This document shows positions 6,966 to 58,893 of a stretch of 64,000 nucleotides of DNA, piece after piece (the first letter of the stretch is position 1; every line of letters begins with the position of its first letter). Both the position numbers and the translations under genes were made by a program. The notes beneath the pieces are model-generated. The model saw nothing but the letters and a program-made list of their open reading frames with translations, ran no database searches and was not told the DNA's origin. The DNA is from Alphaproteobacteria bacterium. GTDB lineage: Bacteria; Pseudomonadota; Alphaproteobacteria; TMED109. Where the stretch lies: the NCBI GenBank assembly GCA_965116745.1, contig OZ220701.1:436744-500743 (forward strand), read 5' to 3'.

Positions 6966-6975
6966 GGGAGCTTCG

Positions 6976-11996: not shown

Positions 11997-12075
11997 GTCA
12001 GTGGCGGCTGACCGGGCAGGGCGAAGCGGCGGGGGCGGCGTGGTCGGTCACGCTGACGCCCCTGCCCGGCCCGGC

Positions 12076-13299
12076 TCAGATCTCGATTTCGTACTGCTGG
12101 TTGTCGTCCGGATTGACCGCCAGGTCGCAAACGGCCTGGGTGTCGATGGGCTGGCGTTGCGGCAGGGTGTCGATGACCGTCATGCCCTGGTTCTCGATCT
12201 CCATCAGATGGACATCGAGGACGGCGTGGTGGGTCTTCGGGTCGACCGTCACCCTGCCGCCGGGACCCTGGATGGAAATCCCGGTCTCGAGCGCCGTGAC
12301 GACCGCATCACGATCGAGCGAGCCGGCTTCCCGCACGGCCGCCGCCCACGTCAGCACGCCCTGGTAGTTCGATACCGCGATTTCGTGAATGGCCGTGTCG
12401 TCGCCGTAGGCCGCCGCCCATTTGCGCTTGAATTCGGCGTTCTCGGGGGTGTCAAGCTCCTGGCTGTAATTGTAGGCAACCATGATCCCGTTGCCCTCGT
12501 CCGCGGTCAGTACCTTGTGTTCGTTGCCCACACCGAGGGTCGTGGAGGCAAGGGGGATCCGGGCCTTCATGCCGGCCGCGGCCCATTGCCGGAAGAACGA
12601 CAGGTGGGCGCCGCCGACCAGGGGCGCGATGACCAGGTCCGGGGCGGTCGACTGGATTTTCGCGATCGTCGATCCGAAGTCGGAGACATCGAGCGGGAAG
12701 AAATCGGCCGCGACGGTCTCGCCGCCGTGGTCGCCCACGTACTTCTGGATCCACTTGGCCGTGATCTGGCCATAGTTGTAGTCGGCCGCGAGGATGTAGA
12801 CCGATCGGGCCCCCACCTTGTTCATGGCGTAGGGCACGAGTGCCTCGACCTGCTGGGCCGGCGTGACGCCGTTGATGAAGATGTTGCGGTCGCAGACCCC
12901 GCCTTCGTACAGCACGTTGTAGAAGTACAGCGTCCCGCTCTTGCGCAGGATCTGGCGAATCGCTTCTCGCGAGGCCGACAGGATGCCGCCATGGACGACG
13001 TCGACCCGATCCTCGCGGGTGAGCTGCTGCGCGTACTGGGAATACAGCGCCATGTCGGATTGGGTGTCATAGGCGACCACGTCGATGGGCCGCCCCAGCA
13101 GGCCGCCGGCGTTGTTGATGTCGTCCACGGCGAGGCGCATCGCCATGTCCATCGGCTTGCCATAGGCGTCGAAGATGCCGGAGGTGTCGAGGACGGATCC
13201 GAGCTTGATCGGTTCGGCTGCGGCCGCCGGGTACCCCAGCAGGGCGGCACCCGTCAGGGCGGCGCTGCCGCCGAGAAAATGGCGACGGTTGATGGACAT
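12076..13299 (-). CDS. Tat-exported periplasmic substrate-binding protein (Peripla_BP_6; AmiC/UrtA-like amide/urea binding type)
   Basis: Twin-arginine signal MSINRRHFLGGSAALTGAALLG. The body resembles UrtA/AmiC-type type-1 PBPs (GSVLDTSGIFDAYGKP...DVVHGGILSASREA...YILAADYNYGQ). Start chosen at the internal ATG 13299. Confidence 0.85.
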   Translation of the reverse strand: MSINRRHFLGGSAALTGAALLGYPAAAAEPIKLGSVLDTSGIFDAYGKPMDMAMRLAVDDINNAGGLLGRPIDVVAYDTQSDMALYSQYAQQLTREDRVDVVHGGILSASREAIRQILRKSGTLYFYNVLYEGGVCDRNIFINGVTPAQQVEALVPYAMNKVGARSVYILAADYNYGQITAKWIQKYVGDHGGETVAADFFPLDVSDFGSTIAKIQSTAPDLVIAPLVGGAHLSFFRQWAAAGMKARIPLASTTLGVGNEHKVLTADEGNGIMVAYNYSQELDTPENAEFKRKWAAAYGDDTAIHEIAVSNYQGVLTWAAAVREAGSLDRDAVVTALETGISIQGPGGRVTVDPKTHHAVLDVHLMEIENQGMTVIDTLPQRQPIDTQAVCDLAVNPDDNQQYEIEI

Positions 13300-13360
13300 A
13301 CGGAAATCCTCCTGTCGGGGCCCGCTCGGGCCCGTCATGGGTTGCTGACAGGCACGGCGG

Positions 13361-14956
13361 TCATGCCTTGCCCTTGTCCTTGGTCTTGATCCGATTGGCG
13401 TAGTCGGCAGTGCGCCCGGCCAGGTTGGGATCGAAGTCGAGGCCGATTTCGGCCCCCATCTGCTTCATGGCCGGCAGCCGGACGGCCATCCCGAGGATCT
13501 GTTCCATCGCGGCGCCAAAGGCGTCTTCAGCCGCGCCCGAACTTCCTGCAGCCGGGCTGGGTCCGCCAATCTGGTTGATCCGGATGGATTCGATCTTCTC
13601 GACCGGCTTCATCATCTGCGCCATGATTTCGGGGAGGCGATCGAGCTTGCGTTCTTCCAGGCGCATGCGGATCACGGAGTCGCTCAGCAGGTTCTCGGCC
13701 TGATTCAGCGCCGTGCGTCCCTCCGCCTCCGCCTCCATGCGGGCCTTGTCGGCCGATGCCGCGCTCGCCGTTGCGGCGGCCTCTGCCTTGGCCTTCGCGA
13801 GCACGGTGTCGACGTCGGTCTGCACCCGCGCGTGTTCGCGGGCGAGATCCTGTTCCTGGCGCAGCCACGCGACCTCTCCCTCGCGCTCGGCGGCGGCCCG
13901 CTCCTTTTGGGCCTGAACGTTCTCCGAAGCCAGGACCAGTTGGGCCCGGGCTTCTTCCTCGGCGGCCCGGGCAACCGACTCGTCGGCCCGCTTCCGGGAA
14001 AGTTCGATTTCGTTCGTGAGCTTCGCCTCTTCGAGTGCCAGGAGCGCGCGCATCTCGGCCTTGCGGAGCTCTTCGTCGCTCGTGACCTGGGCCGCCTTCG
14101 CCTTCTGCTCGCCATCGATGCGCACGGTCTCGGAGGCCAGTACGGCCGCCGCCCGCGCTTGCTCGGAACGCGAGCGGGCATCGGCCTCCAGCTTGTCCAG
14201 GTGCTCTTGCTGGGAGATCTCGGCCTCGCGTTCGGCCCGCTTGAGCTCGATTTCGCGCTGATGCTGGGCCAGCCGGCTCTCCCGGACTGCGATCTCGGTG
14301 GCGGTCTCGATCTCGACCCGCGCCTTTCGCTGCGTGGCGACGAGTTCGGCGAGGCGCCGGCGGCCCTGCGCGTTGAAGGCGTTCGATTCATCGAGCTGGG
14401 CCAGGTTGGTCTGGTCGACCGACACCAGGGCGGCGGCAATCAGGCTGAGTCCGAACTTCGCCGCCTGCTCCCCGGCTTCGGTCGCGACGTCCTGCGTGAA
14501 CGCGCTCCGGTTCAGGTGGATGTCCTCCATCGTCCGCTGGGCGGCGGCGTTCTGGATGGCGTTGACCAAGGCCCCCCTCAGCAGCTCGTGGACCGAGCCC
14601 CCGTTCCGCGAGATGCGATTGCCGAGCGCCTGGGCAGCGGTCGAAACCCCTTCGCGAGACGGTTCGACCCGCAACTCGAATTCCATCCCGACATCTGCCC
14701 GCAGTTGGTCGCGGCACAGGACCGCCTCGCTGCCCGATTGCGTGGCAGAAATCGAGATCGCCGCCATGGAGACACGCTGCAGGCGATGCACGATCGGGAG
14801 GGCCAGGCAGCCGCCGTCGAGGACGACCTTGCGCCCGCCGAGCCCGGTTCGCACCAACGCCGTCTCCAGCGTGGCCTTGGCGTAGTAGCGCTGGAGGAAC
14901 CAGATTCCACAGGCCAAGGCCAGCAGAACGCCGGCAACGGTGTAAAGCCAAGCCAC
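13361..14956 (-). CDS. flotillin-family SPFH/Band-7 protein (YqiK-like)
   Basis: An N-terminal membrane helix and SPFH core are followed by a long Ala/Glu/Arg-rich coiled coil and the conserved flotillin tail (LPEIMAQMMKPVEKIESIRI). Confidence 0.85.
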   Translation of the reverse strand: MAWLYTVAGVLLALACGIWFLQRYYAKATLETALVRTGLGGRKVVLDGGCLALPIVHRLQRVSMAAISISATQSGSEAVLCRDQLRADVGMEFELRVEPSREGVSTAAQALGNRISRNGGSVHELLRGALVNAIQNAAAQRTMEDIHLNRSAFTQDVATEAGEQAAKFGLSLIAAALVSVDQTNLAQLDESNAFNAQGRRRLAELVATQRKARVEIETATEIAVRESRLAQHQREIELKRAEREAEISQQEHLDKLEADARSRSEQARAAAVLASETVRIDGEQKAKAAQVTSDEELRKAEMRALLALEEAKLTNEIELSRKRADESVARAAEEEARAQLVLASENVQAQKERAAAEREGEVAWLRQEQDLAREHARVQTDVDTVLAKAKAEAAATASAASADKARMEAEAEGRTALNQAENLLSDSVIRMRLEERKLDRLPEIMAQMMKPVEKIESIRINQIGGPSPAAGSSGAAEDAFGAAMEQILGMAVRLPAMKQMGAEIGLDFDPNLAGRTADYANRIKTKDKGKA

Positions 14957-18040: not shown

Positions 18041-20092
18041 ATGATACCGCCAACAGGCACGGTCGGTGCCGATAGGCTGCAGGCGGCGAGGCGGCGTCGA
18101 TGGCGAGGCCTCGCCCGATTGGCGCAGGCCAGCATCCGCCATGGCGCCCGGCTGTGCGCGGTTGTGTGGGCGTCAGCGGCAGTGGGCGCACATGCGGACA
18201 CGGTCGGGCAGCCCCTTTCCGGGGAACCCTGCATCGAGGATGGCCGGCGGCTGACGTACGGTTTCTTTGCGGACTTCCGACCCGTGAGCTTCAGCGAGAA
18301 CCTGGATCCGGACAGCCCCGCATTCGATGACCATCGTGGTTACGAGGCCGACCTCCTGACCGCGTTGGAGACCATGGCGGACGCCGGTCTTGCGTTTGAC
18401 CGACGGGGCATCGATATCTGGCCGGACATCTGGCTGCGACCGGCAGGCCCTGACTACGACTTTGTGGGCGGCGGCATCACCATACTGGATTCGCGCACAC
18501 GTGACGCCGATGGCGTGGAGCAGGTGGCGTTCACGTCCGGCCACATCGCCTTTCGACAGTCGCTGCTTGTGCGCGCCGAGGACGCGCAGCGCTACGCATC
18601 GCATGCCGACCTGGGTCCCGCGCGGGTGGCGGCGTTGGGCGGTACGACCGGGGAGCATCGGCTGCTGGTGCTGACCGGGGTGGTGGGGGCGGAGGGCAAC
18701 CTGGCGGCGGGCACTGCGATTCACCTGGCCGACGGCACTTCCCTTACGGCCGACGGCAGCGCCCATTATCAGATCACCGCGGCGGGCTCCAGCGCGAACC
18801 TGGCGAACCGTGTGCGTATCGAGGGACCATCGGGCACGGTGAAGGAAGTGCTCATTCTGTCCACAGATCAGGACCAGCTGGATGCGCTTGCGAGCGGGCG
18901 CGTGGACGCCATCGCCCGCGGCGAACTGGGCAACCGGGAGGCGTCCCGCAACGCTAACTCGCGCTTTGTCGTGACCGCGCTCGACCCGGCGGTGGAGTAC
19001 GGCGGCTTCGCGTTCGACAAGGACGACCAGGGACTCGCTGCGTGCGTCGATGCCCGGATCAACTACCTGACCGACGGTCGAAGCATCGGTTTTGCGGAAT
19101 GGCTCGACGACTCGCAGGCGTTCCTGCAGCGCGCCCGATACTGGAACGCGACGGAAGCGCTTGCCCAGATCTATGCCTATTCGGCGCTTACCGAGCTCGT
19201 GCGCGAACGATTCAATCGTACCTTGCGCGCCCCGGTCGACGCGGGCGATGCGGCGTGGGACCCCAACCCCGGCGGTCTCTGGCTGCGGGTGCAGCACGGA
19301 GGCCGGCGCAACGAGAACGCCCACGCCGACAGTCGCCCGTTCGACGGCGGCAGCTGGCGGGAAGACCGCAGCGAACTGCAAGTCGGTGTGTACCGGCCCC
19401 TCGACGGACTGGACGTCGACCTTCGAGCGGGGTTCACCGGACACGTATTCCGAGTGAATGCCCACGTCGAAAACGGTCGAGGCGCGCCGGGGTCGGATGC
19501 GGAAGCACTCGGTTACGGCGGCGGGGTGAGCCTGACCTGGATAGGCAGACGAGGCCCTTATGCGGCGACCGAGGCGCGATTCAGTCTTTGGGAAGCCGAG
19601 GTGAACTACCGGCGGCGGGAATTGTCGACCGGCATCGACGGACGGTCCTGGGGAGTGTCGGCGGAATCGGGCTGGCGATTCGGCGGGGACGGTTTCCGGC
19701 TGACGCCACGGCTGCGCGTCGCGTGGACCGGCGTGGGCTTCGATCGCTTCACCGACAGCGACGGCGTCACCGTGCGGCAGGACCATGACAACGCCTTGGA
19801 CGCCGCGTTGGGCGTGGCGGTTGGCATCGTCATGCCGGATTCCGGAATCCGGCTGTACGGTGACCTGGAGTTGGTGCGTGACTTCGAGGAAGACAGCGCC
19901 ATCGCCGCCTACGGATACCGGTTCCGCTCCGGCTTGGCGGAAACCTGGGCGCGGCTGCAGGTGGGCGTCCGCAAGGAGTTCTCGCCGCGCGTGAGTGCTG
20001 CGTTGAGCAGCGATTTCGGGGTGGGACTGGACCCTGACACCGAGAGCACGTCCATGTGGGACATTCAGGCGGCCCTGCGTTGGGCGCTGTGA
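18041..20092 (+). CDS. autotransporter with a family-3 solute-binding-protein (SBP_bac_3-like) passenger
   Basis: The N-terminal half has SBP3 blocks (YEADLLTALE...DFVGGGITILDSRTR...VAFTSGHIAFRQSLLVR...LGGTTGE...SGRVDAIARGEL...YGGFAFDKDD...INYLTDG). The C-terminal ~270 aa is an autotransporter beta-domain (WLRVQHGG...ELQVGVY...RLTPRLRVAWTGVGFDRFTD...ALRWAL). The likely true start is TTG 18119, which gives signal peptide MAQASIRHGARLCAVVWASAAVGAHA. Confidence 0.8.
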   Translation: MIPPTGTVGADRLQAARRRRWRGLARLAQASIRHGARLCAVVWASAAVGAHADTVGQPLSGEPCIEDGRRLTYGFFADFRPVSFSENLDPDSPAFDDHRGYEADLLTALETMADAGLAFDRRGIDIWPDIWLRPAGPDYDFVGGGITILDSRTRDADGVEQVAFTSGHIAFRQSLLVRAEDAQRYASHADLGPARVAALGGTTGEHRLLVLTGVVGAEGNLAAGTAIHLADGTSLTADGSAHYQITAAGSSANLANRVRIEGPSGTVKEVLILSTDQDQLDALASGRVDAIARGELGNREASRNANSRFVVTALDPAVEYGGFAFDKDDQGLAACVDARINYLTDGRSIGFAEWLDDSQAFLQRARYWNATEALAQIYAYSALTELVRERFNRTLRAPVDAGDAAWDPNPGGLWLRVQHGGRRNENAHADSRPFDGGSWREDRSELQVGVYRPLDGLDVDLRAGFTGHVFRVNAHVENGRGAPGSDAEALGYGGGVSLTWIGRRGPYAATEARFSLWEAEVNYRRRELSTGIDGRSWGVSAESGWRFGGDGFRLTPRLRVAWTGVGFDRFTDSDGVTVRQDHDNALDAALGVAVGIVMPDSGIRLYGDLELVRDFEEDSAIAAYGYRFRSGLAETWARLQVGVRKEFSPRVSAALSSDFGVGLDPDTESTSMWDIQAALRWAL

Positions 20093-47421: not shown

Positions 47422-48459
47422 GTGGAGCGCGCCATGTCGATGAAGCTGCCCAGAGACCTTCGGGACGCCTACCGGGGCTGGGACCCGGCGGCCGGCGTGG
47501 CGCGATTCAGCGGCTGGCTCGACCGAAGCAGACGGGCCGACCGGGATGGCTACGACCATACCGCGACAGTGAACGACTACTACGATTTGTGCAGCGAATT
47601 CATGCAGTTCGGATGGAACGAATCCCTGCACTTCGCTCCGTTGACGCGCGGGGAGACGCTGGAGGAAGCCATTGTCCGGCATCAACGCAGGATGATCGGA
47701 TCGCTGGAGCTGCGAGAGGGGATGAAGGTCGTGGACGTCGGCTGCGGTGTAGGCGGCCCCATGCGGCGGGTCGCCCGCGAGTCAAACGCCACGGTCGTCG
47801 GCATCAACAACAACCAACGGCAGTTGGAAATGGCGAGGCGGAGGAACGTCGAGGCGGGCCTCGATCACAGGGCGGAGTATGTCAAGTGCAACTTCATGGA
47901 CATGCACGCCATTGCAGCCCACTCGTTTGACGCGGGTTACGCGATCGAGTCGACGTGTCACGCGCCGGACAAGGCGCGCGCGTTCGCGGAGATCTTTCGC
48001 GTGCTCAAGCCGGGCGCGCCGTTCTGGGGCCAGGAAATGTGCATGACGGAAAGCTTCGACCCGGACAACGCCCGTCACCGCGCGATCAAGGATGAACTCA
48101 TGCGGGGAGTCGCCCTCCCGAATATCGCCACGTTCCGGGAAGTGAACGACGCGCTCGAGGCCGCAGGCTTCCACATTGTCGAGGCGGAGGACAGGGACAT
48201 CGGGGATAGCGGGGGCACGCCCTGGTATCGGCCCATGGAAGGACAGGGCGGGATATTGCGCAATGCGTTTCGCAGGACGCCATGGGGCCGCGCGGCGATG
48301 ATTGCCGGCCTTCGGCTGGCTGAGGCGTGCCGTGCCTTCCCGAAGGGTTCGACCGCCGTCGTCAGATTGATGGATCGAACAGCCGACGCGTTTGTTGCCG
48401 GCGGCAGGACAGGGATATTCACGCCGCTCTACTGTTTCCTCGCCCGCAAGCCCGGGTGA
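47422..48459 (+). CDS. sterol 24-C-methyltransferase (ERG6/SMT-type class I SAM methyltransferase)
   Basis: It is collinear with yeast ERG6 along its whole length: VNDYYDLCSEFMQFGWNESLHFAP, VVDVGCGVGGPMRRVA, VGINNNQRQL, YAIESTCHAPDKARAFAEIFRVLKPGAPF, PWYRPMEG, and the sterol-MT C-terminal block AFVAGGRTGIFTPLYCFLARKPG. Confidence 0.85.
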   Translation: MERAMSMKLPRDLRDAYRGWDPAAGVARFSGWLDRSRRADRDGYDHTATVNDYYDLCSEFMQFGWNESLHFAPLTRGETLEEAIVRHQRRMIGSLELREGMKVVDVGCGVGGPMRRVARESNATVVGINNNQRQLEMARRRNVEAGLDHRAEYVKCNFMDMHAIAAHSFDAGYAIESTCHAPDKARAFAEIFRVLKPGAPFWGQEMCMTESFDPDNARHRAIKDELMRGVALPNIATFREVNDALEAAGFHIVEAEDRDIGDSGGTPWYRPMEGQGGILRNAFRRTPWGRAAMIAGLRLAEACRAFPKGSTAVVRLMDRTADAFVAGGRTGIFTPLYCFLARKPG

Positions 48460-48828: not shown

Positions 48829-49785
48829 CTATCGCACCCGCTGGAGCGCCGTCCGGGTGAAGTCGCGAGCGTCAAGGTCGGTTCCAAACGCGTAGTCCGA
48901 CCAGTCCAGTATGGTGCTCTTGCCCGTGAGATGGTTGGTCATCGTGATCCTGCTGCTCCGCCAGAAACGATCCAGATATTGTGCGTAGTCTTCCATGACC
49001 ATCGTCTTGACATGCGCTTCCCGACGGTCGAAGAACTGGATCTGCATGGAGCGCAGTTCTTCCTTGTCCATCCATACCAGTTGACGGGAGTACCCGGAAT
49101 CCTCATTCAGCGGGATCCGCTCCAGAACGATGCATTCGAGCTCGCCGCAAGGCTCGTCCCGCAGGTACCGATGCATGAATTTCTCGACTTCCACGGTGCC
49201 GAGGTCCTCGTACGAGAACTCGCTGCCCATGAATGAGCCGGATTGATTCGCGGAGCTGATGCGCTTGACCCGTTTCAGGGCGGGGAGATAGAGCCACTGT
49301 TCGTCTGGCTCACCCTTGTGGACGTGAACGAGAAATGCGGTTCCCTTGACGTCGCGCGGGCGGTCGAACACGAACACGCTGCGGTCGCCGTCGCCCGCGA
49401 CCTCCATCACCTTCAGGCGGATTTCGCGATTGCTCTCCTGTCCCCGCTTGGTGCGCAGGGTCATGATCAGGTTAGACGTGAAGTTGCCGAAACCCTTTTG
49501 ACGTTCACGGGCCTCGGTCGCGATCCGGAGCCCCGCTTCTTCGGCGGTTTCAGCCTGCCCGACCGTAGGCACGGCCGCCCAGGCGAAGATGGCAAGTAGG
49601 ATCCCGAATGACGCCAGGACCGGGCGAGGAAGAGAAACGCGAATGACCGTTGCCTCCTGTCGATCACCGTAACCGCAACAGGAAACGTAGGAACTCGACG
49701 GAGAGGCCCGAGCAGTGAGCGGATCACATCGATTCCCGCACCTGTTGAAGCATGGTAGCACGATTCCTGCCATGCACCTGACCAT
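48829..49785 (-). CDS. LolA-like outer-membrane lipoprotein-sorting-type periplasmic protein
   Basis: DGDRSVFVFDRPRDVKGTAFLVHVHKGEPDEQWLYLPALKRVKRISSANQSGSFMGSEFSYEDL is the hallmark block of the LolA_like family that usually pairs with COG1033 RND genes. The start is uncertain; the signal-like segment begins near 49650. Confidence 0.75.
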   Translation of the reverse strand: MVRCMAGIVLPCFNRCGNRCDPLTARASPSSSYVSCCGYGDRQEATVIRVSLPRPVLASFGILLAIFAWAAVPTVGQAETAEEAGLRIATEARERQKGFGNFTSNLIMTLRTKRGQESNREIRLKVMEVAGDGDRSVFVFDRPRDVKGTAFLVHVHKGEPDEQWLYLPALKRVKRISSANQSGSFMGSEFSYEDLGTVEVEKFMHRYLRDEPCGELECIVLERIPLNEDSGYSRQLVWMDKEELRSMQIQFFDRREAHVKTMVMEDYAQYLDRFWRSSRITMTNHLTGKSTILDWSDYAFGTDLDARDFTRTALQRVR

Positions 49786-49827
49786 CTGCCACGGGACGGT
49801 CTTGTCCGCGGAGAGCAGCTTCCGTGC

Positions 49828-52155
49828 CTATCCGACCGACCGGCTCAGTCGCTCCCTGATCTGCGCGGTCGTTTCCTTCGTCGTGTCAAGCGCCATCAGC
49901 AACGGCGGAAGGAACAGGAAATCCGCCAGCAGGGCGATGATGACCGTGATCCCGACGAGCAGGCCGAGCGCCTGGTTGGTCACCATTCCCGATGCTCCGA
50001 ACACCATGAAGCCCAGCGCGAACACAACCGTCGTCGCGGTCAGCGCCTTGCCGACCGCGCCAAAGGCGGACTGAACGGACTCCGACGGCAACAGCCCGCG
50101 TTTCCTGGCGCCGACATACTTGGTCATGAAGTGGATCGTGTCGTCCACGATGATGCCGAACGCGATGGCGGTGACGACTGACGCCGCGACGCCGACCTCT
50201 CCTACCACGTATCCCCAAAGACCCATCGCCATGGCGGCCGGCAGGAAATTGGGGACTAGGCTGATCAGGCCGAGGCGCACGCTTCTGAAGACGAAGAGCA
50301 GGAGCAGGGACACGATGGCCATTGCCGCGATCGTGCCCCGCAGCATGCCCTCGATGTTCCGTTGAATTGAATGGGCGCCGACCACGGAAACGCCCGTGGC
50401 CTGGGTTTGCAGGTCGGGCGCGTTTTCCCGGAACCAGGCTTGCGTGCGATCGTCGAGGTCAACCTTCTCCCGGGTCGTGAGGCTCTTGAGCACGACCGTC
50501 ACGCGCGTCGAAGACCGTTCCACGTCGATGAGGTTGTTCAGATCGCGGCCGACCGGCAGAGAGAACTCGTAGAGCAGCAGGTACTGCGCAGCAAGGTCGG
50601 AGTCGTCCGGAAGCAGGTAGAAGCCGGGATCGTCGCCATGCAGGTTCTTGTTCAGGCGCTTCATGATGTCGGAGATGGCGAAGACGTGGGCCACCTCCGG
50701 TTGCGCCCGACTCCACTCCGCAAACGCGTCCACCTGCCGGAGATATTCGACATCCGTGATGCCGCCCTCCCGCCCGGAGTTGAGCGAGTACTCGTATGTT
50801 TCTACGCCGGTGAAGTTCTCGCTCACAAAGTCCGTGGATCGCCGGAACTCGTAGCTCTCGTCGAGCAGCTCAAGCCAGTTCTCGTGCAGCTCGATCCGCG
50901 AGATCCCGGCGATGAGCACGACCATCACGGCGGCGACCGACCAAAGCAGGGTCGTGCGGTAGGAAATGACGAACCGCGCCAGGCGATCGAAGATGTCTGC
51001 TTTTCCCGCCGGCGCAGGCCCGCCACGCATCGGCACAACGGTCAGGAAAGCGGGCAGCAGCGTGACCGAAAAGACGAAGGCCGCCATAGCGCCGAACGCC
51101 ACCATGTTGCCCATCACCCGAAACGGCGGCATGTCCGCGAAATTGAGGCTGAGAAAGCCGATTGCGGTTGTCACCGATGTCAGGAGAACCGGCCACACGT
51201 TGACCTGCAGGGAATGAATCGCTGCCTGCGGACGGTCCATGCCTTGGCGCAGGCCCGCCCGCATCCCCTCGATAATGTGCACGGAGTGCGCGACGGTGAC
51301 TGCCATCAAGACGAATAGCGCCGCGCCGCTCTCGCCGAACAACTTCAGCCCGACCCAACCGGTGAAACCCAGCGCGGACAGCATGACCGCGATCAGCATC
51401 ACGAGGATCGCCACCATTCCCCATAGCGAGCGCAACAGAACGATGGCGACGAGCAGCATGGTCCCGAGCGCGGCCGGCGCGAGGACGCCCATGTCATCGT
51501 CAATCGCCTGCTTCATGGCGCGGTTGAGGATGAGTTCGCCGGTCAGATGGTAGTCGATGGTCGGATACCGAGCTCTCTGTTCGGCGGCGGTACCGTGGAG
51601 GAAGTCGGTAACCTCGAATCGTCCCAGCTGTCGGTCCTCGGGAAGCGCGACGCTGACGACCAATCCGGCGATGCGACCATCCCTGGAAATGAAGCGCCCT
51701 GCGACTTCTTCGGTACTGAGCGCAATTTCGCGAATGCGTTCGATATCGCTGTCGCTCAGGGAACTGGCGTCGTCGATCAGGGGGGCGACGATCAGTTCGT
51801 CCTCGAGGCCCTCGCTGTGTGAATAGTTTGTGATCGAATCAACGCGGGTGACGTAGGGCGTTCGCCATAGCTGGTCGGTCAGCTCTTCAATGGCGACGAG
51901 CGCTTCCGGCGAGAAAACCGTACCGCCTTGCGGGGCCACGACCACCAGCGCGGCGTCGGAGAGCGAGTAGGTGGCTTCCAGCTCGTCGAGTGCGACGATG
52001 TGCGGGTCGTCTTGGCTGAAATGATTCCGAACGTCGACGTCAACGACAATGATGTACTGGGCGCCCGCGGCCAGGGCTAGCATTGCAACTAGTGAGAGTG
52101 CGATAGACAGCCATCGGCGCTCAACCGGTAGCGCGATGAAGGAATCCAAATTCAT
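49828..52155 (-). CDS. RND-superfamily lipid exporter (COG1033, MMPL/HpnN-like)
   Basis: 775 aa with two 6-TM bundles and two periplasmic loops. The N-terminal region ...HFSQDDPHIVALDELEATYS... is typical of predicted RND exporters. A LolA-like gene follows immediately on the same strand. Confidence 0.9.
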   Translation of the reverse strand: MNLDSFIALPVERRWLSIALSLVAMLALAAGAQYIIVVDVDVRNHFSQDDPHIVALDELEATYSLSDAALVVVAPQGGTVFSPEALVAIEELTDQLWRTPYVTRVDSITNYSHSEGLEDELIVAPLIDDASSLSDSDIERIREIALSTEEVAGRFISRDGRIAGLVVSVALPEDRQLGRFEVTDFLHGTAAEQRARYPTIDYHLTGELILNRAMKQAIDDDMGVLAPAALGTMLLVAIVLLRSLWGMVAILVMLIAVMLSALGFTGWVGLKLFGESGAALFVLMAVTVAHSVHIIEGMRAGLRQGMDRPQAAIHSLQVNVWPVLLTSVTTAIGFLSLNFADMPPFRVMGNMVAFGAMAAFVFSVTLLPAFLTVVPMRGGPAPAGKADIFDRLARFVISYRTTLLWSVAAVMVVLIAGISRIELHENWLELLDESYEFRRSTDFVSENFTGVETYEYSLNSGREGGITDVEYLRQVDAFAEWSRAQPEVAHVFAISDIMKRLNKNLHGDDPGFYLLPDDSDLAAQYLLLYEFSLPVGRDLNNLIDVERSSTRVTVVLKSLTTREKVDLDDRTQAWFRENAPDLQTQATGVSVVGAHSIQRNIEGMLRGTIAAMAIVSLLLLFVFRSVRLGLISLVPNFLPAAMAMGLWGYVVGEVGVAASVVTAIAFGIIVDDTIHFMTKYVGARKRGLLPSESVQSAFGAVGKALTATTVVFALGFMVFGASGMVTNQALGLLVGITVIIALLADFLFLPPLLMALDTTKETTAQIRERLSRSVG

Positions 52156-52794
52156 GTCAACGTGCCGAATCGGTATCAGGCTTCATGTATAGCACTTCCA
52201 GTCCACCCGGCCACGGGAGGAGCCGGTACGCCTGCCCATCCAGGCTGCTGTTCGTATCGCGGTTGCGGCAACCACCACCGGTATCGTCAAGTTAACAGTA
52301 TCGCGTTTGCCCCATTGCCTTCAATCAATACTGAAACGGTTGATAGGTACGGATGGTTGCCGGTGCGCCAGTGCCCGCTGCATCGCGCTGACGCAACCGT
52401 GTCCGGCAGAGAACGCTCCACGCGATCACGCCTGGCGCGCGCGGTTCAACTGCGGCAACTTCACGTCGAGACTTCGGAAAGTCCCCTCATCAGGCAGAGG
52501 GGCAGGCTATTGAATGTCGTCGACTTCAGATGGCTTGCAGGTCTCTTTTGTACGGTCATTCGTCTTGTTGCCGTACCACGACAGTGCTATTTGTCGGGTG
52601 ATGCGATACAGCAAGAACTGTGACGTCGGCTCGGCTACTGGCCTGCCGTCGACGTGCGACTTCCTCACCATCATTTGACATGGCGAGGACGAAACCTGGA
52701 TGCTTCAGGACCACGCACCGTCGCTCCCTTCGGTCTTGCGCAGTTCGCTGAGATAAAGGCGTCGCCATACCTGGGAACGAGAAATTGGCGAAAC

Positions 52795-53841
52795 GTGAAG
52801 AGCAGTTGCAGCACGGGTGACGTGACGGGCGCTCTGTTTCCGTTTCCCGAGGGCTGGTACTTCGTCATCAGCCGACGCTCTTTGGTAAAGAGCAAACTGA
52901 TTCAACGGCAGTGGCTGGGCCAGGACATCATCGCCTGGTGTGACAGTGAAGGCACTGTCTGCGTGGCCGAGTCGGTGTGCCCGCATATGGGTTCATCTCT
53001 GGGCCCGGCCGCAGGCGGGCAAGTGCGCGACGACTGTCTCGTCTGCCCCTTTCACGGGTTCACGTACGATATTTCCGGCAGTTGCGTGGCGACTCCCTTT
53101 GCTCCGCCGCCGAAATCCGTGAAGCTTCAGGTGCTCGATGTACGGGAAATTCATGGCCTGATCTTCGCCTGGTGGAGCGCAGCCGGACGACCGCCGCAAT
53201 GGACCTTGCCGGACGTGCCGTCCGCGGGAGACGACTGGTGCGCCCCGGAAGTCCGGAGCGTCCGATTTCGCGGCCATGTCCAGGAGTTGGCAGAGAACTC
53301 CGTGGATCTGGCCCACCTGCAGTACGTACATGGTTACCGAGACGTAAATCCGGTCGGCTCGACCACGGTGGATGGCGCCCATCTGCTTGCCCGGTTCGAG
53401 TTCCGCCGGCGCCGGCGTATCGCCGGCATTGTCGAGTCCGTCTACCAGGTTTCTGCTGCCGCCCACGTCCATGGGCTCGGTTACTCTTTCGTCGATATCC
53501 AGGAGCACTCGATCGGCATGGACCTGCGGCTCTGGGTCCTTGCCACCCCGGTCGACGGCACGTTGGTGGAGTTGGTCCTGGTCAGCCAGATCCGGAACAT
53601 GCGCAACCCCAAACGACCGATCGTGGGCCTGGGGTTCCTGCCCGCGAAGCTGCGCACCAGCGTCATGAACAAGTTCGTGGTATCCGCGCAAATGCGGGAT
53701 GTCCGCCAGGATGTCGTCATCTGGCAACGACGGCGGCATCGTCCGCATCCGCGATTGAGTCGTTCTGACGGCGACATCGGCAGATATCGTCGCTATTGCA
53801 AACAGTTCTATCCGCGCGTCGACGAAGGTGATGACAGGTAG
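52795..53841 (+). CDS. Rieske [2Fe-2S] non-heme iron oxygenase (sterol-desaturase/SdmA/KshA-like class)
   Basis: Rieske motif CPHMGSSL...(17)...CPFHGF, preceded by FPEGWYFV. The C-terminal catalytic region includes NSVDLAHLQYVHG. Start GTG 52795 is proposed; the 395-aa ORF start at 52654 adds a non-homologous leader. Confidence 0.8.
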   Translation: MKSSCSTGDVTGALFPFPEGWYFVISRRSLVKSKLIQRQWLGQDIIAWCDSEGTVCVAESVCPHMGSSLGPAAGGQVRDDCLVCPFHGFTYDISGSCVATPFAPPPKSVKLQVLDVREIHGLIFAWWSAAGRPPQWTLPDVPSAGDDWCAPEVRSVRFRGHVQELAENSVDLAHLQYVHGYRDVNPVGSTTVDGAHLLARFEFRRRRRIAGIVESVYQVSAAAHVHGLGYSFVDIQEHSIGMDLRLWVLATPVDGTLVELVLVSQIRNMRNPKRPIVGLGFLPAKLRTSVMNKFVVSAQMRDVRQDVVIWQRRRHRPHPRLSRSDGDIGRYRRYCKQFYPRVDEGDDR

Positions 53842-53975: not shown

Positions 53976-55334
53976 CTACGCCTTCCTGAACCGTGACCCG
54001 TGCAGGATGCTCCCATAGTGGTTGAACCACCGCCTGGCCTCGGGGTCGTCAAAGGGATAGTCGGCGCCAAGCTGCCTCGCCGCGGCGAGGCCGGTGATGA
54101 GGCATGTCTCCTGGCTGTTGATCAGCGTGTGAGCGCCGCAGTGCCACGTCCTTCGCTTGCCCTGAATGAAGCGGAACAGGCCCACGAGCATCGTGACTTG
54201 ACGCAGGTCATGAACGATATGCTGGAACCGGCGCTTCGAGATGATTTTCAGCTCGTCGATGGGACTGGTCGCGTTGTAGGTCACCAGGCAGGGCTTGTCC
54301 GAACGCTTGGCCCAGGGCTGCTGGTTGTGGATGATGTGCGTGATCTCGTAATTGTCAGGTTTGTCGCCGTACTGCCGGATGTAGTTGGTCCGAGTGGCCA
54401 GGCACTTCATGTCGTTGTCGGGCAGGACAGAGGAGTCCCAGTGAACGACGGCTTGACGGTGGATATCGTTGTCGTATCGGATTGACGAAAGGATGAAGCG
54501 TTCGAGCCGGGAAGGCTGGTCCAGGATTTTCAGGGTCTGGTCTGCCGGGCATGCAAACACAACCTCGTCGAACGTTTCCCGGGCCCCGGACGCATCCTCA
54601 ATCACGACGCCGGATGCCTGTCGGTACACCTTCGAGACCGGCCGGTTGAGGTAGATTTTGTCCCGGAAGCCAGCCGACAGGTTCTCGTAGATTCGTCGAG
54701 TCCCCTGATCCCACGTCCACATGGGGGTGCCCGTCTCGATATTGAAGAATTCGAGATACCTCGAGAAGAGCGCCGCTGGCAGATCGAACACGTTCGAGGC
54801 CAGTACGAAATTGATGAACATCGGCTTCAGGATCTTGTACCGGAAGGCCTCGGAAAATCCCCCCAGATTCAAGACCGTCCGCATGCTGACGTAATTGAAC
54901 GGGTTGAGGGCGTTCAGGTACTTGGACCGGGCGCGGCTGAGCCAGCCGATCCAGTGCAAACGTCTCAGGAGGCGCTGAAACTTCCTGATTTCGGATTGAA
55001 GATCGTCCCTGATCTCGGACTCGAAATCATGGGCGTAGGCTTGGCCACCGTACTCGACGCTGTAGGTGAACCTGGTATCAATGAGCTTGATATCGAACGC
55101 TTCCATCAGCAACAGGACGTGGTGATACACTGATGGAATAAGGGCCGTGACCGATATGTCGAAGGGAATTGAACTGCCGTCATTCTGGGGCATGTCGACG
55201 GTGACCGCGTTCCCGCCGAGCTGCTCCTGGGCCTCGAACAGGCGGAAATCAAAACGGTCCGGGTGATGATGCAGCGCCCAGGCGGCGCCCAGTCCCGAGA
55301 CGCCTCCACCCACAACAGCAATTCGTTGCGGCAT
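53976..55334 (-). CDS. FAD-dependent oxidoreductase (amine-oxidase fold, COG2907-like)
   Basis: Dinucleotide fold MPQRIAVVGGGVSGLGAAWAL...FEAQEQLGGNA and the C-terminal ...HCGAHTLINSQETCLITGLAAARQLG. GC is visibly lower than in the flanks. Confidence 0.8.
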   Translation of the reverse strand: MPQRIAVVGGGVSGLGAAWALHHHPDRFDFRLFEAQEQLGGNAVTVDMPQNDGSSIPFDISVTALIPSVYHHVLLLMEAFDIKLIDTRFTYSVEYGGQAYAHDFESEIRDDLQSEIRKFQRLLRRLHWIGWLSRARSKYLNALNPFNYVSMRTVLNLGGFSEAFRYKILKPMFINFVLASNVFDLPAALFSRYLEFFNIETGTPMWTWDQGTRRIYENLSAGFRDKIYLNRPVSKVYRQASGVVIEDASGARETFDEVVFACPADQTLKILDQPSRLERFILSSIRYDNDIHRQAVVHWDSSVLPDNDMKCLATRTNYIRQYGDKPDNYEITHIIHNQQPWAKRSDKPCLVTYNATSPIDELKIISKRRFQHIVHDLRQVTMLVGLFRFIQGKRRTWHCGAHTLINSQETCLITGLAAARQLGADYPFDDPEARRWFNHYGSILHGSRFRKA

Positions 55335-55757
55335 TGCGGTTTTCCTCGCAAATCTCGGAACTTGGAAACTTACCACCGTGCCCGATCGCCCACTAGGCAG
55401 CCATGCTGCTTGGCCGCGCCATGGCAGGAAGAAACGAACCGCCGGTCAGGCAGCGACAGCGATGTCGGACCCGAGGCCGCCGTCTGGCCAAATCACTGCC
55501 GTGCCGCGGCGTGCCCTTCGTAGTGCGTTTGCGATTAACGTGCGTCGAGTGCCTGATCTCGGGGGACGTCTGATCGATGGGATCGAGATCTGGTGAAGGC
55601 GGTGCAGCACCCGCGGTTGTGTCCCTGCATTGCGGGCGGCGTGGCGCCCGGTTCTGTTCATGGCGGTAGCTCCCGTGGCCAGCCAAACGGGGGGTCCAAT
55701 CAGAATGTTGTTCGCGGCCTGCCGAAGCGTCATCATCCTTTCCGAGTGAGAACCGGC

Positions 55758-56537
55758 ATGCATTTTCTCGTGTTTTCGAAGCGGTTCGGGCTGGCCGTTC
55801 TCGCGCTGCTTTCGTGCGTTTCGGCCCAGGCCGCCGATTGGAGCAACACCGAATTTCATCTCCAGGTCGGCCGTCTGGATGCCCCCTCTTTCGCTGGCGG
55901 CGGCAGAGCCCTACACGTGATCCATACGCTGCAGCACGCAAGCGGATGGCAATATGGCGACAACTTCTTCTTCGTTGACGTCGTGGATTCGCGGCAGCCC
56001 GGCGCCCCCGACATCGACTTCTACAGCGAAGCCTACGCGAACTTGAGCCTTGGCAAGATTACCGGCGGTCGCGTCGGCACCGGCCTGGTTTCGGATATCG
56101 GGCTGATCGGCGGCTTCAACTGGGCCGTGGACGCGAAGGTCCGAAAATATGCAGCCGGCGTACGGCTGGCGCTCGGCCTCGAGGGTTTTGCGTTCGCGAA
56201 CCTCGACCTGATGGCCCTGATCGACGACAGCGAGGGGTTCGTGTCCGGCGGGGCGCCCGCGGAGGACGACACTATCCTCATCGACTTCAACTTCGCACGG
56301 CCGTTCAGGATCGGCACAGCGGACTTCAGCCTCGAAGGCCATATCGAATATGTCGGCGGGCGGACCAACGAACTCGGCGGCACGGTGGGATCGTGGATCT
56401 TGGCGCAGCCCCAGCTGCAGTGGCACTTGACTGATCGGCTCGCGCTCGGGATCGAGTACCAGTTGTGGATCAACAAGTTGGGCGACCGGGACACCGACGA
56501 GAACGCCGTGCAGGCTTTGATCGTGTGGGAATTCTAG
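55758..56537 (+). CDS. Tsx/OmpK-like outer-membrane channel
   Basis: Signal peptide MHFLVFSKRFGLAVLALLSCVSAQA. ADWSNTEFHLQVG... and the terminal ...NAVQALIVWEF match the Tsx/OmpK family pattern. Confidence 0.7.
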   Translation: MHFLVFSKRFGLAVLALLSCVSAQAADWSNTEFHLQVGRLDAPSFAGGGRALHVIHTLQHASGWQYGDNFFFVDVVDSRQPGAPDIDFYSEAYANLSLGKITGGRVGTGLVSDIGLIGGFNWAVDAKVRKYAAGVRLALGLEGFAFANLDLMALIDDSEGFVSGGAPAEDDTILIDFNFARPFRIGTADFSLEGHIEYVGGRTNELGGTVGSWILAQPQLQWHLTDRLALGIEYQLWINKLGDRDTDENAVQALIVWEF

Positions 56538-57134
56538 GCCCTGCGTCGGTCGGGCTCACGCGTGCGGCCATGACAATCCGCCAGGCGACGCCACCGACCG
56601 AATGGTTGCGCCCGCCGCCCCGGAGGAATGGTCCTGCGCGAAGAGTGCGTAGCGTGGGTTGGTCGAGCGTGAGGTCGCCGCGCCGAACGGAGCGCCGATC
56701 CATAGGTTTAAGTTCAACCGGTACTGGATCCGGGTGCCGGGACGCGGCACCCTGTGCGTGGAGGTGCCGTACTGTGCGAACGTCCGGCCCGGCAATGGGT
56801 TCCCCGTGCGGCGGCATCGGCCACCTGGACGACGCGTGGTCCGGGGATCGCGAAGTGCGGGCTGCTGTCGCAGCTGGCACCGAGCCTGGCCCGCATCGGC
56901 GGAGTATCCGGATCGGCAGGGGTGCCGAAGCGCCGGTCACGAGAGAGACGAAGCGCGGTCGTGCGCTGCCCGGGATTCCGGTGCCTGGATCCAATCCGAA
57001 CCGACGATGATGGTCGACGCGAACGCGATCCGTGGCGCGCTGCCCGAACCTGCAGCTGATGTGGGTGCGGCCGTTCTCGCGGGTGGCGTACCATCCCCGC
57101 GCAGACAGGCAGGGCAAGCGGGCGGAGTCCTGCC

Positions 57135-58130
57135 ATGCGGGTGATCACGGGAGCGAGCGGCCATATCGGCGGTGTGCTCGCCCGAGTGCTGGCCGACCGG
57201 GGTGATCCCCGTCAGGTCCGCGCGATCTACCGCGATCGGAAAGGAACGGCAGCCGATCTCGCCATTGAGTGGGTCGGTGGCGACATCCTCGACCAGGAAT
57301 CGCTGGTTGCCGCGTTCTCGGGAGCGGAAACCGTCTACCACCTGGCCGCCTTGGTGTCGATTGACCCCGGCCGGGCCAAGGATGTCCACACGACGAACGT
57401 GTCGGGCACGCGCAACGTCGTTGAGGCAGCCCTGCGCTGCGGCGTGCGGCGGCTGGTGCACGTTTCCTCGATTCACGCCTTCAACCAGCACCCGCTCGAC
57501 GAAGTGCTCGACGAGCGCCGTGGTCCCGCCGACGGTCCGTGGCACGCCGCCTACGACCTGTCGAAAGCGGCAGGCGAACGGGAGATTCGGCGCGGCATTG
57601 ATCGCGGCCTCGATGCCGTGATCCTCAACCCGACCAGCGTCATCGGCCCCTTCGACGGCGTGCCCTCGTACATGGGACACGTGTTCCTCGACCTGTACCG
57701 GAGACGCATTCCCGCGCAGGTTGCGGGCGGCTTCGACTGGGTGGACGTGCGCGACGTGGTCGACGCCACGGTGGCCGCCGAGACGAAGGCGAGGTGCGGC
57801 GAGAACTACCTCCTGTCAGGCGGCTGGGATACCGTGCGCAACCTGGCGATCCTGTCCGAGCAGGCGACCGGGGTGCCGGTGTCGCGTTTCGTGGTCCCCT
57901 TGTTCGTGGCCCGGCTCTGGGCGCCCTTTCAGGTCATGTTGGACCGTAGTCAGGGGCGCCGGCCGCTCTATACGCCGTCGGCGGTACGCGTGATGAGCAA
58001 CGGCAACCGCCGGATATCCAACGCCAAGGCGCGGGCGGAACTCGGGTTCGAGCCGCGTCCCTTGGCAGATTCCGTACGGGATGCCTACCGTTGGTTCGAC
58101 GAGCAGGGCATGCTCGGCGAAGCTGGTTGA
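57135..58130 (+). CDS. extended short-chain dehydrogenase/reductase (3-beta-HSD/HpnA/dihydroflavonol reductase-like)
   Basis: MRVITGASGHIGGVLARVL (Rossmann fold), YDLSKAAGE (YxxxK), 331 aa. Confidence 0.85.
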   Translation: MRVITGASGHIGGVLARVLADRGDPRQVRAIYRDRKGTAADLAIEWVGGDILDQESLVAAFSGAETVYHLAALVSIDPGRAKDVHTTNVSGTRNVVEAALRCGVRRLVHVSSIHAFNQHPLDEVLDERRGPADGPWHAAYDLSKAAGEREIRRGIDRGLDAVILNPTSVIGPFDGVPSYMGHVFLDLYRRRIPAQVAGGFDWVDVRDVVDATVAAETKARCGENYLLSGGWDTVRNLAILSEQATGVPVSRFVVPLFVARLWAPFQVMLDRSQGRRPLYTPSAVRVMSNGNRRISNAKARAELGFEPRPLADSVRDAYRWFDEQGMLGEAG

Positions 58131-58131
58131 G

Positions 58132-58893
58132 ATGGCCGAGGAACAACTGCACGGCGTGCTGGTATGGGCGGTCATCGCCGCGGCCGGCCTGACGTTCCTG
58201 TACCTGCTCCGCCTGACCGCGCCCTACGGCCGCCACTACGCCGGCACGGGCTGGGGGCCCCACATCTCCAGCCGGCTCGGCTGGGTCATCATGGAACTGC
58301 CGGCGGTCGTCATCTTTCTCGCGGTCTATCTCGCCGGAAAGTCGGCGTCCCATCTCGTGCCGCTGTTCTTCCTGGCCATGTGGCAGGTCCACTATCTGAA
58401 CCGGACGTTCGTGTTTCCGTTCCGGATCCGGGCAAGCGGACGGAAGACGCCGCTGCTGATCGTGGCGTCAGGCTTGTTCTTCAATGCGATCAACGCCTAC
58501 ATCAATGCCCGGTTCATTTCGGAATTCGGCGAGTACGCGGTCGAATGGCTCGCCGACCCGCGTTTCCTGATCGGCGTCGGAGTTTTCCTGGCGGGGATGG
58601 CGCTCAACCTGCACGCCGACCACGTCCTCATTCGCCTGCGTGGACCGGGCGAGACCGGCTACGTGATCCCGCAGGGAGGCGGGTATCGCTTCGTGTCGTG
58701 TCCCAACTACCTGGGTGAACTCCTCGAATGGGCCGGCTGGGCACTCGCCACGTGGTCGACGTGCGGTCTCGCCTTTTTCCTCTTTACCGCCGCCAATCTC
58801 GTGCCCAGGGCGCGCAGCAATCACCAATGGTACCGGGAGACCTTCAGCGATTACCCGCCTCGCCGGAAGGCGCTGATACCGGGCGTCTTCTGA
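58132..58893 (+). CDS. 3-oxo-5-alpha-steroid 4-dehydrogenase (steroid 5-alpha-reductase, SRD5A/DET2 family)
   Basis: The C-terminus GGGYRFVSCPNYLGELLEWAGWALATWSTCGLAFFLFTAANLVPRARSNHQWYRETFSDYPPRRKALIPGVF is collinear with human SRD5A1 (GGLFEYVTAANYFGEIMEWCGYALASWS...RAKEHHEWYLRKFEEYPKFRKIIIPFLF). The start ATG is 2 nt after the SDR stop. Confidence 0.85.
   Translation: MAEEQLHGVLVWAVIAAAGLTFLYLLRLTAPYGRHYAGTGWGPHISSRLGWVIMELPAVVIFLAVYLAGKSASHLVPLFFLAMWQVHYLNRTFVFPFRIRASGRKTPLLIVASGLFFNAINAYINARFISEFGEYAVEWLADPRFLIGVGVFLAGMALNLHADHVLIRLRGPGETGYVIPQGGGYRFVSCPNYLGELLEWAGWALATWSTCGLAFFLFTAANLVPRARSNHQWYRETFSDYPPRRKALIPGVF

Follow-up and report, generated by a model that had tools for sequence, protein, structure and literature searches.

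A clade of sterol methyltransferase-family proteins with four fixed pocket-aromatic replacements, linked to a GPP34-cytochrome P450 fusion in sponge-associated bacteria

The 64,000-nucleotide stretch analysed here (the window; positions 436,744 to 500,743 of the forward strand of contig OZ220701.1, assembly GCA_965116745.1, from an Alphaproteobacteria bacterium of the lineage TMED109) carries a gene of the sterol methyltransferase (SMT) family, which the initial annotation had described as a full-length, ERG6-type sterol C-24 methyltransferase in a bacterial context. The open reading frame (ORF) behind that description, 47422..48459 (+), with 345 amino acids counted from a GTG codon, is present as claimed, but an ATG at 47434 is the likelier start. 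Because the GTG at 47422 overlaps the GGAG at 47424..47427 (+), which reads as a Shine-Dalgarno-like site 6 nt upstream of the ATG, and because 341 amino acids is the length of the nearest homologues as well as that of the public gene call on an identical contig, the coding sequence is likely 47434..48459 (+) rather than one starting at 47422. It encodes 341 amino acids with the Pfam domains Methyltransf_11 and Sterol_MT_C. The sequence blocks named earlier are all found in it, namely the Region I block DYYDLCSEFMQFGWNESLHF, which resembles ERG6 without being identical to it, VVDVGCGVGGP, YAIESTCHAP and the tail GGRTGIFTPLYCFLARKP. Region I, the sterol-binding part, lies at 47599..47634 (+) and reads FMQFGWNESLHF here versus FYEYGWGSSFHF in ERG6; the Region II loop that binds S-adenosylmethionine (SAM), VVDVGCGVGGP, is located at 47728..47760 (+) and is fully canonical. 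The equivalent of ERG6 D249 is a Val, encoded at 48109..48111 (+), at a position where Gly is needed for 24-isopropyl products, and the Sterol_MT_C domain (PF08498) is encoded at 48265..48453 (+). The bacterial context is confirmed by the flanks, which hold a two-component kinase, ABC transporters, a TonB-dependent receptor, an autotransporter and RND pumps.

The Sterol_MT_C profile, which had been suggested as a check on the sterol identity of the protein, does find its domain, over residues 282-344 and profile positions 3-65 of 66 (E 2.6e-17; 63.1 bits, with a Pfam cutoff of 21.7). In BLASTP the protein is 35% identical to yeast ERG6 over 318 residues (E 6e-69) and collinear with residues 53-368 of ERG6, so that the full-length collinearity and the sterol-type C-terminal tail are both borne out; the yeast sequence used agrees with a 2025 preprint at all 28 numbered residues compared (28/28). 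In a neighbour-joining tree of 104 sequences with 200 bootstrap replicates, the protein is placed inside the SMT family and not among generic methyltransferases, in a clade that receives 100% support in its wider form and 92% for the core plus P0121. This clade is nested among clades of symbiont proteins that carry the label 'sterol methyltransferase' in NCBI records, and its branch is separate from that of ERG6, whose fungal sister is P0160, and from P0130, an SMT1-like protein of rice. On these sequence comparisons the gene is a genuine SMT-family member. The AlphaFold model of the protein is confident (pLDDT 85.7, pTM 0.87). Sequence search and Foldseek returned generic class I methyltransferases alone among solved structures, no SMT structure having been solved, and the fold is uninformative on the substrate for this reason. 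The NCBIfam models gave no family above cutoff for the SMT, and a name look-up of the other non-canonical representatives returned automatic 'sterol 24-C-methyltransferase' labels, with no STRM-1 or Botryococcus enzyme among them.

Within the family, the window protein and its relatives stand apart by a constant set of replacements. In a survey of about 100 full-length SMT-family representatives, taken from 289 clusters at E <= 1e-30, the motif TDFYE[YFW]GWGxSFHF is present in nearly all, while FMQFGW[NS]ESLHF is confined to relatives of the window protein. I compared the columns of 121 clade sequences with those of 97 canonical representatives, using ERG6 numbering. At position 81 the canonical residue is Y (86%) and the clade has M (100%), a residue found in 1% of canonical sequences; at position 89, F (88%) is replaced by L (100% of the clade, 4% of canonical sequences), at position 223, Y (70%) by Q (100% versus 1%), and at position 225, W (87%) by M (100% versus 0%). 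M81, L89, Q223 and M225 are thus fixed in 121/121 clade sequences. The window protein differs from ERG6 by Y81M, G86N, F89L, Y223Q and W225M, N or S being present at position 86 in 111/121 clade sequences, and it departs from the Region I signature Y81-E-[YF]-G-W-G-x-x-F-H-F; E82Q, A112I and L341M are likewise fixed or nearly so in the clade.

The remainder of the protein is strongly conserved. The clade retains Y74, W85, H90, F91, the SAM loop, Q154, D189, E195, G217 and G268, and further W286, G333, G352, F357 and P359. Invariant in all 121 sequences are Q154, E195, G352, F357 and P359, as well as D125, G127, G129 and P133 of the class I SAM loop DxGxGxxGP, and H90 is present in 119. In a set of 45 sequences with 68-89% identity to the window protein, 92 columns do not vary. 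These columns, the invariant catalytic and SAM-binding residues and the confident structural model argue for an active enzyme under purifying selection, and since the substitutions are themselves invariant on a strongly conserved scaffold, they suggest a change of specificity rather than decay. The sterol pocket looks remodelled and the specificity changed, as far as can be judged from the alignment.

Of the 25 residues that are common to all experimentally active SMTs according to the 2025 preprint, the window protein has 21; the four that changed are T78S, found as S78 in 103/121 clade sequences, and G86N, F89L and L341M, which extend across the clade (L89 in 121/121, M341 in 118/121 sequences). 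The clade signature is shared by no assayed SMT enzyme. Published SMT models put residues 81 and 249 no more than 5 Angstrom from the side chain of the docked sterol. According to the nematode 4-SMT paper, C-24 methylation relies on cation-pi contacts with the Region I aromatics, and the C-4 enzyme is without these. The designation 'ERG6-type' was therefore an overstatement, and with five pocket changes and 21 of 25 residues kept, C-24 methylation of delta-24 sterols should not be assumed.

Position 249 bears on repeated methylation. The window protein has Val here, and the clade Ile or Val in 121/121 sequences. In propylating bacterial SMTs, Gly249 is necessary, though not sufficient, for the formation of 24-isopropyl sterols: none of 11 G249 mutants of such an enzyme made C30 sterols, only those with Ala, Ser, Asn or Thr kept C29, and G249V had no detectable C29 or C30 sterols. 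Another criterion of propylating SMTs, Phe at 81 and/or 83, is satisfied by F83 (109/121 in the clade), position 81 being Met. Because Val stands at 249 instead of the required Gly, repeated methylation to 24-isopropyl products is predicted not to occur.

Upstream of the SMT gene, and divergent from it, lies a gene that encodes a fusion of GPP34 (GOLPH3) with a cytochrome P450 (45218..47284, -; Pfam detects both domains), whose likely start is 47242 or 47185. The gap of about 140 bp given in the initial annotation agrees with the 137 bp between the longest ORFs; with the likelier starts (47242 or 47185, and 47434) it is about 190-250 bp. The heme loop YGLGTHKCLG of the P450 part is present and intact. 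Its best solved relatives are CYP51 structures, at merely 83 bits; an identity as CYP51 was rejected on this score against the best solved CYP51. A P450 lies within 10 kb of the SMT in 78/117 loci and within 600 bp in 45/117, in four orientations, and in the 80 best genome loci it is fused to GPP34 in every locus that has both domains (56/56). With respect to the window copy, the GPP34-P450 proteins fall into two groups, one about 60-93% identical (Alphaproteobacteria, Chloroflexota and some others) and one about 38-50% identical (most Gammaproteobacteria), and the adjoining SMT is 62-86% identical throughout both; L002 and L060 are among the loci that have two copies of the fusion.

The same fusion has been described from another angle. 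A 2025 study (PMC11706023) defined GPP34_L, consisting of GPP34 and a P450, as a monophyletic set of 656 proteins that is exclusive to sponge symbionts of many phyla, and proposed binding of phosphatidylinositol 4-phosphate and a block of phagosome maturation as its role. The divergent neighbour in the window has exactly the same architecture; it differs in that the window-type fusion is linked to an SMT-family gene. Neither 'sterol' nor 'methyltransferase' appears in the main text of that study, whose authors looked at flanking genes for the short GPP34 form only. In the literature library searched, nothing was found that connects GPP34 or GOLPH3 with sterols in sponge symbionts, and within that limit the linkage with the SMT appears to be undescribed so far. 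Given its recurrence in 78 of 117 loci, the linkage points to a role of GPP34-P450 in lipid or sterol chemistry.

In a census of 122 related loci, in which all ORFs were clustered and antisense shadows were removed, GPP34-P450 is the most frequent partner (82/122 loci), followed by a Rieske protein with a KshA_C domain (50/122). Components of transport systems are next: membrane-fusion proteins (31 + 9 loci), AcrB-type RND proteins (30 + 8 loci), MMPL/Patched transporters with a sterol-sensing domain (SSD; 24 + 9 loci) and an outer-membrane factor (21/122). An amine-oxidase flavoprotein is present in 17/122 loci. Two further recurrent ORF clusters, 9 and 11, have no Pfam match and were dismissed as antisense shadows of transporter genes. 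The motif of oxidosqualene cyclase (OSC) is found in none of the 122 loci (0/122), and no cyclase or epoxidase is present among the genes examined in the 64-kb window; the SMT gene is therefore not part of a de novo sterol pathway cluster.

In the window itself, downstream of the SMT, a LolA-like (TP_0789-like) protein of the lipoprotein-carrier type (48829..49785, -; 200 bits) is followed by an MMPL/HAE3-type RND transporter (49828..52155, -) with a weak match to the sterol-sensing domain and a sub-threshold match to HpnN. This pair, 48829-52155, looks like a lipid or sterol trafficking pair and is comparable in idea to the Bst transporters of sterols, although the BstA model matches it only at E 3.5e-5. 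The pair recurs beside the SMT in L122, L002, L006 and L027, and MMPL relatives beside other clade SMTs score above cutoff for Patched and Sterol-sensing. Further downstream are a Rieske [2Fe-2S] oxygenase with KshA_C (52654..53841, +), which is nearest to KshA, an amine-oxidase-type flavoprotein (53976..55376, -), an ORF of 326 amino acids without a family match (55557..56537, +) inside the lower-GC stretch of the cluster, a short-chain dehydrogenase/reductase (SDR) of the 3-beta-hydroxysteroid dehydrogenase (3-beta-HSD), SdmB or HpnA type (57060..58130, +), and a steroid 5-alpha-reductase-like membrane protein (57997..58893, +; Steroid_dh, 176.8 bits). The latter two overlap by 134 nt as longest ORFs, and as the Steroid_dh domain spans residues 150-298 only, the 5-alpha-reductase-like gene probably starts downstream of the overlap. 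The SDR scores 211 bits for SdmB (cutoff 600) and 200.5 bits for HpnA (cutoff 367.65), below both equivalog cutoffs; with SdmA at 39.9 bits for the Rieske protein (cutoff 600), an SdmA/SdmB demethylase pair was rejected for these two genes. The window yielded neither CYP51 nor an equivalog of SdmA or SdmB, the HpnN and HpnA models scored far under their cutoffs throughout, and with NCBIfam the LolA-like protein, the 5-alpha-reductase-like protein and ORF 55557 matched no family above cutoff.

Some of the related loci add detail to this picture. The richest sterol-type neighbourhood observed is L122:4480-17355 (GCA_022820875.1), in which an amine oxidase, the P450 and GPP34 called as two genes, an ERG4/ERG24 reductase and the clade SMT are followed by an SMT of another clade (333 amino acids), a gene of 448 amino acids without assignment, the LolA-like gene, a sterol-sensing MMPL and beta-oxidation genes. 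In L125:1-4062 and L126:1-4062, an FA_hydroxylase-family gene is located between GPP34-P450 and the SMT, on the strand that carries the SMT and 47 bp upstream of it; this family includes ERG3, ERG25 and cholesterol 25-hydroxylase. In L083, the genes of an RND tripartite pump and those of the SMT, the Rieske protein and the P450 are interleaved.

Bacterial SMT homologues had been called rare in the initial annotation, which fails for sponge microbiomes. A scan of one genome per species gave 324 loci across many phyla, and the protein database gave 2,992 matches at E <= 1e-10, of which the best 120, the clusters examined here, show an identity of 68% or more with the window protein in every case. 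The best 80 of the 324 loci are metagenome-assembled genomes (MAGs) with 60-86% identity to the window protein, from Rhodospirillales and other Alphaproteobacteria, several gammaproteobacterial orders, Thermodesulfobacteriota, Dadabacteria, Chloroflexota/Dehalococcoidia, Acidimicrobiia, Rhodothermales, Longimicrobiales and 'Poriferihabitaceae'; the nearest of them is a MAG of Rhodospirillales, with an SMT that is 86% and a P450 that is 93% identical. A metagenome scan of 241 million records with six exact peptides of the window protein, which is hence incomplete, matched 37 contigs, 29 of which belong to confirmed sponge series and 8 are of unverified origin. The sponge series are LXNI (Sarcotragus), LXNJ (Petrosia), JGIcombinedJ30088 and Ga0209021 (both Aplysina), and MKWU, a sponge metagenome from the work of Horn and Slaby. 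The clade has been seen so far in sponge-associated bacteria alone. By comparison of contig names, none of the 37 metagenome contigs is that of a tested SMT, and neither of two JGI-sourced clade proteins is located on one, although the six-peptide scan could miss clade members on LXNJ01000389, LXNJ01004423 and Ga0209021_1000146. It has been published that SMT homologues are enriched in Ircinia symbiont MAGs and were transferred horizontally, that 8/10 tested sponge-symbiont SMTs methylate desmosterol, and that three symbiont SMTs, two from Aplysina and one from a Chlamydiae MAG, make 24-isopropyl sterols.

The window also shows a compositional bias at this location. From the P450 gene to ORF 55557-56537, over 46-56 kb, the GC content is 0.58-0.645, versus 0.66-0.71 on both flanks, a drop that fits a horizontally acquired island; at the borders of this block, neither a tRNA nor an integrase was seen. 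In L082:7702-15125, the clade SMT is a lone insert in the middle of a urease operon, with ureD and a cobW-family GTPase gene on one side and ureF, ureE and the genes of the alpha, beta and gamma subunits on the other; a few kb away there are two phage-type integrases, a resolvase and an IS21-type ATPase gene, and the locus looks like a recent single-gene transfer. Identities of 60-86% across phyla, the lone copy in the urease operon and the GC dip in the window argue that the module is mobile.

In this study I favour the reading, which I regard as evenly poised between right and wrong, that the gene encodes an active sterol C-methyltransferase of altered specificity, working in a mobile module for sterol oxidation, methylation and transport in sponge-associated bacteria. 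Its usual partners would be GPP34-P450, the KshA-like Rieske oxygenase and RND transporters (AcrB-type or MMPL/Patched with SSD), sometimes with a LolA-like protein. The reading builds on the observed family membership, signature, linkage and distribution; which substrate is methylated, where, and in which order the steps follow are proposals here. The transporter set would move a sterol across the envelope, whether it stems from the sponge or is a product made in another part of the cell; that it is taken up from the host I purely infer. The P450 and/or the Rieske enzyme might then oxidise or desaturate the sterol, the SMT, which keeps H90 and E195 (residues implicated in catalysis and sterol binding) and the SAM loop, would methylate the side chain at an olefinic carbon, C-24 or one near it, and the methylated product would go back to the membrane or out of the cell. 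The suggestion that the organism could make or remodel 24-alkylated sterols can be narrowed in this respect, as 'remodel' fits the gene better than 'make'.

Several observations weigh against this proposal. Every active SMT has T78, G86, F89 and L341, and the window protein has none of these; the authors of the 2025 preprint suggest that such deviations may mark either inactive enzymes or enzymes with other substrates. The phylogeny is of the neighbour-joining type alone. In about one third of the loci, no partner lies within 10 kb of the SMT, and many sponge symbionts carry lanosterol synthase clusters elsewhere in the genome, as the Ircinia MAG study shows. In none of the 80 genome loci compared were counterparts of the window's 3-beta-HSD-like and 5-alpha-reductase-like genes found close to the SMT, and these two genes are therefore placed outside the conserved module.

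Alternatively, the protein may be a canonical ERG6-type C-24 SMT in de novo sterol synthesis, with the other pathway genes elsewhere in the genome. The collinearity with ERG6 throughout and the Sterol_MT_C domain would fit, functional SMTs of sponge symbionts are documented (Brown et al. 2023, PMC10070321), cyclase-CYP51-ERG24 clusters occur in 115/537 Ircinia symbiont MAGs with steroid genes including SMT often scattered, and the clade SMT of L122 lies beside the ERG4/ERG24 reductase and a second SMT. However, the four pocket aromatics are replaced clade-wide and 4 of the 25 active-SMT residues are changed, the window lacks a cyclase, an epoxidase, CYP51 and SdmA/SdmB equivalogs just as the 122 loci lack the OSC motif, and the recurring partners are a P450 fusion other than CYP51, a KshA-like oxygenase and transporters; I consider this explanation unlikely. 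The lost aromatics themselves would suit methylation of the sterol nucleus, for example at C-4 of 3-oxo sterols, by an enzyme that resembles STRM-1 or 4-SMT and arose independently: SMT-family C-4 enzymes exist, require 3-oxo sterols and are without the Region I aromatics (PMC6997595, PMC9136925), the clade is without Y81, F89, Y223 and W225, and the SDR, 5-alpha-reductase-like, Rieske and P450 proteins of the window belong to the classes that act in the nematode route from cholesterol to lophenol. This is nevertheless quite improbable, as the clade is nested among 24-SMT-like bacterial clades and keeps F80, F83, W85, H90 and F91, and as the SDR and 5-alpha-reductase-like genes are not conserved partners.

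The loss of pocket aromatics could also indicate that the protein acts on something other than a sterol, for instance a hopanoid, squalene, a natural product of the symbiont or some other isoprenoid or lipid with an olefinic bond. In Botryococcus, SMT-like triterpene methyltransferases use squalene and botryococcene as substrates. Among the nearest solved folds are olefin C-methyltransferases whose substrates are not sterols, namely TleD, methyltransferases of geranyl diphosphate and farnesyl diphosphate, and cyclopropane synthases; the HpnA score of the window SDR nearly equals its SdmB score, the RND protein has its sub-threshold HpnN match, and in the alphaproteobacterial MAG locus L050:74-5018 a squalene-hopene cyclase gene lies 5-10 kb upstream of the clade SMT, in a cluster with HpnG-like (phosphorylase), HpnH-like (radical SAM and DUF3463) and IspH genes. 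But the link to hopanoids via this locus is weak, as it concerns 1/122 loci and oxoprolinase-type genes lie between the cluster and the SMT, the HpnN and HpnA scores are far from their cutoffs, and the neighbours, whether recurrent or occasional, are of the steroid type (KshA_C, a CYP51-related P450, ERG4/ERG24, Steroid_dh, FA_hydroxylase and sterol-sensing domains), so that a non-sterol substrate seems rather unlikely. That the gene is a dead or decaying paralogue without a role as methyltransferase I regard as very improbable indeed. It is true that 4 of the 25 active-SMT residues deviate and that deviations of this kind were present in 7/11 inactive SMTs of published assays, but the ORF is full-length with SAM loop, H90 and E195 intact, the 92 invariant columns extend over 45 sequences from several phyla in which the substitutions themselves do not vary, and the gene is kept in the best 120 protein clusters and in 324 genome loci.

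That a sponge symbiont carries a bacterial SMT is known already. The SMTs described by Brown et al. (2023, PMC10070321) and by Brown and Welander (2025 preprint) are of the same family and have the same domain pair, they come from the same habitat (metagenomes of Aplysina, Petrosia and Sarcotragus), are bacterial in origin and spread across phyla, and the nearest clades to that of the window protein in the neighbour-joining tree are other symbiont SMTs. However, all published active bacterial SMTs have 84-GWGxxFHF-91 and Y or F at 81, and several are clustered with SMO-OSC, CYP51, ERG24 and sdmAB, whereas the window clade has M81, N/S86, L89, Q223, M225 and I/V249 and is accompanied by GPP34-P450, the KshA-like Rieske protein and transporters. 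What is new is a clade defined by four fixed replacements of pocket aromatics and coupled to GPP34-P450, a KshA-like oxygenase and sterol-type transporters. With yeast ERG6 the window protein shares the SAM loop, H90, E195 and the C-terminal GG..FTP..ARKP tail, but from both ERG6 and plant SMT1/SMT2 it differs by the aromatics of Region I and of positions 223 and 225, by a shorter N-terminus and by its separate branch. STRM-1 and 4-SMT, compared here by description (PMC6997595, PMC9136925), are likewise SMT-family proteins that lost the signature aromatics of Region I, and the enzymes of the STRM-1 pathway (a Rieske oxygenase, a 3-HSD, a delta-4(5) reductase and P450 enzymes) resemble the classes encoded in the window. 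These proteins are eukaryotic (nematodes, dinoflagellates, haptophytes) and minimally similar to 24-SMTs, and the loss is only partial in the window clade, with Y81, F89, Y223 and W225 gone and F80, F83, W85 and F91 kept.

The clade supplies a definite candidate for those parts of sponge sterol chemistry that lack a known enzyme. The steranes 24-isopropylcholestane and 26-methylstigmastane are used as the oldest chemical evidence for animals, with the makers of their precursors still argued, and no C-26 methyltransferase behind 26-methylstigmastane is known in the literature. A more far-reaching possibility, to which I give little weight, is that the SMT has a regiochemistry for which no enzyme is known in sponges or their symbionts, at C-26 (aplysterol, 26-methylstigmastane) or at the nuclear C-4. 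The exchange of the bulky aromatics Y81, F89, Y223 and W225 for M, L, Q and M would then alter the shape of the cavity at the side-chain end, so that the SAM methyl group could become accessible to a terminal delta-25 olefin or to a sterol bound in another orientation, and GPP34-P450 might be a sterol-tailoring partner and not, or not only, a factor for the evasion of phagosomes. If this were true, bacteria of many phyla would share a mobile cassette that shapes the unusual sterol content of sponges with dense microbial communities. The linkage to the SMT offers an alternative role for GPP34-P450, which has so far been read only as a host-manipulation factor. If the protein is an ordinary 24-SMT, which could equally hold, or is inactive, the clade is one more addition to the known picture and nothing beyond.

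Scans for promoters and terminators around the SMT gene gave nothing useful, and a tRNA scan found none within the 64-kb window. Some observations elsewhere in the window may be added. A flotillin/SPFH (Band 7) protein, a scaffold of membrane microdomains, is encoded at 13361-14956 (-), about 30 kb from the sterol-type cluster, and a link between the two is speculative. The ORF at 6976-9384 (-) combines an ABC-transporter ATPase with amidase domains and may be a real fusion, or the result of a missed stop or start; it adjoins genes for branched-chain-type ABC permeases and a periplasmic binding protein with a twin-arginine translocation (TAT) signal (9381-13338) and for an AMP-binding enzyme (5178-7022). 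The ORF at 18041-20092 (+), with 683 amino acids, has no Pfam match and carries an autotransporter beta-barrel domain according to NCBIfam (TIGR01414, 79 bits).

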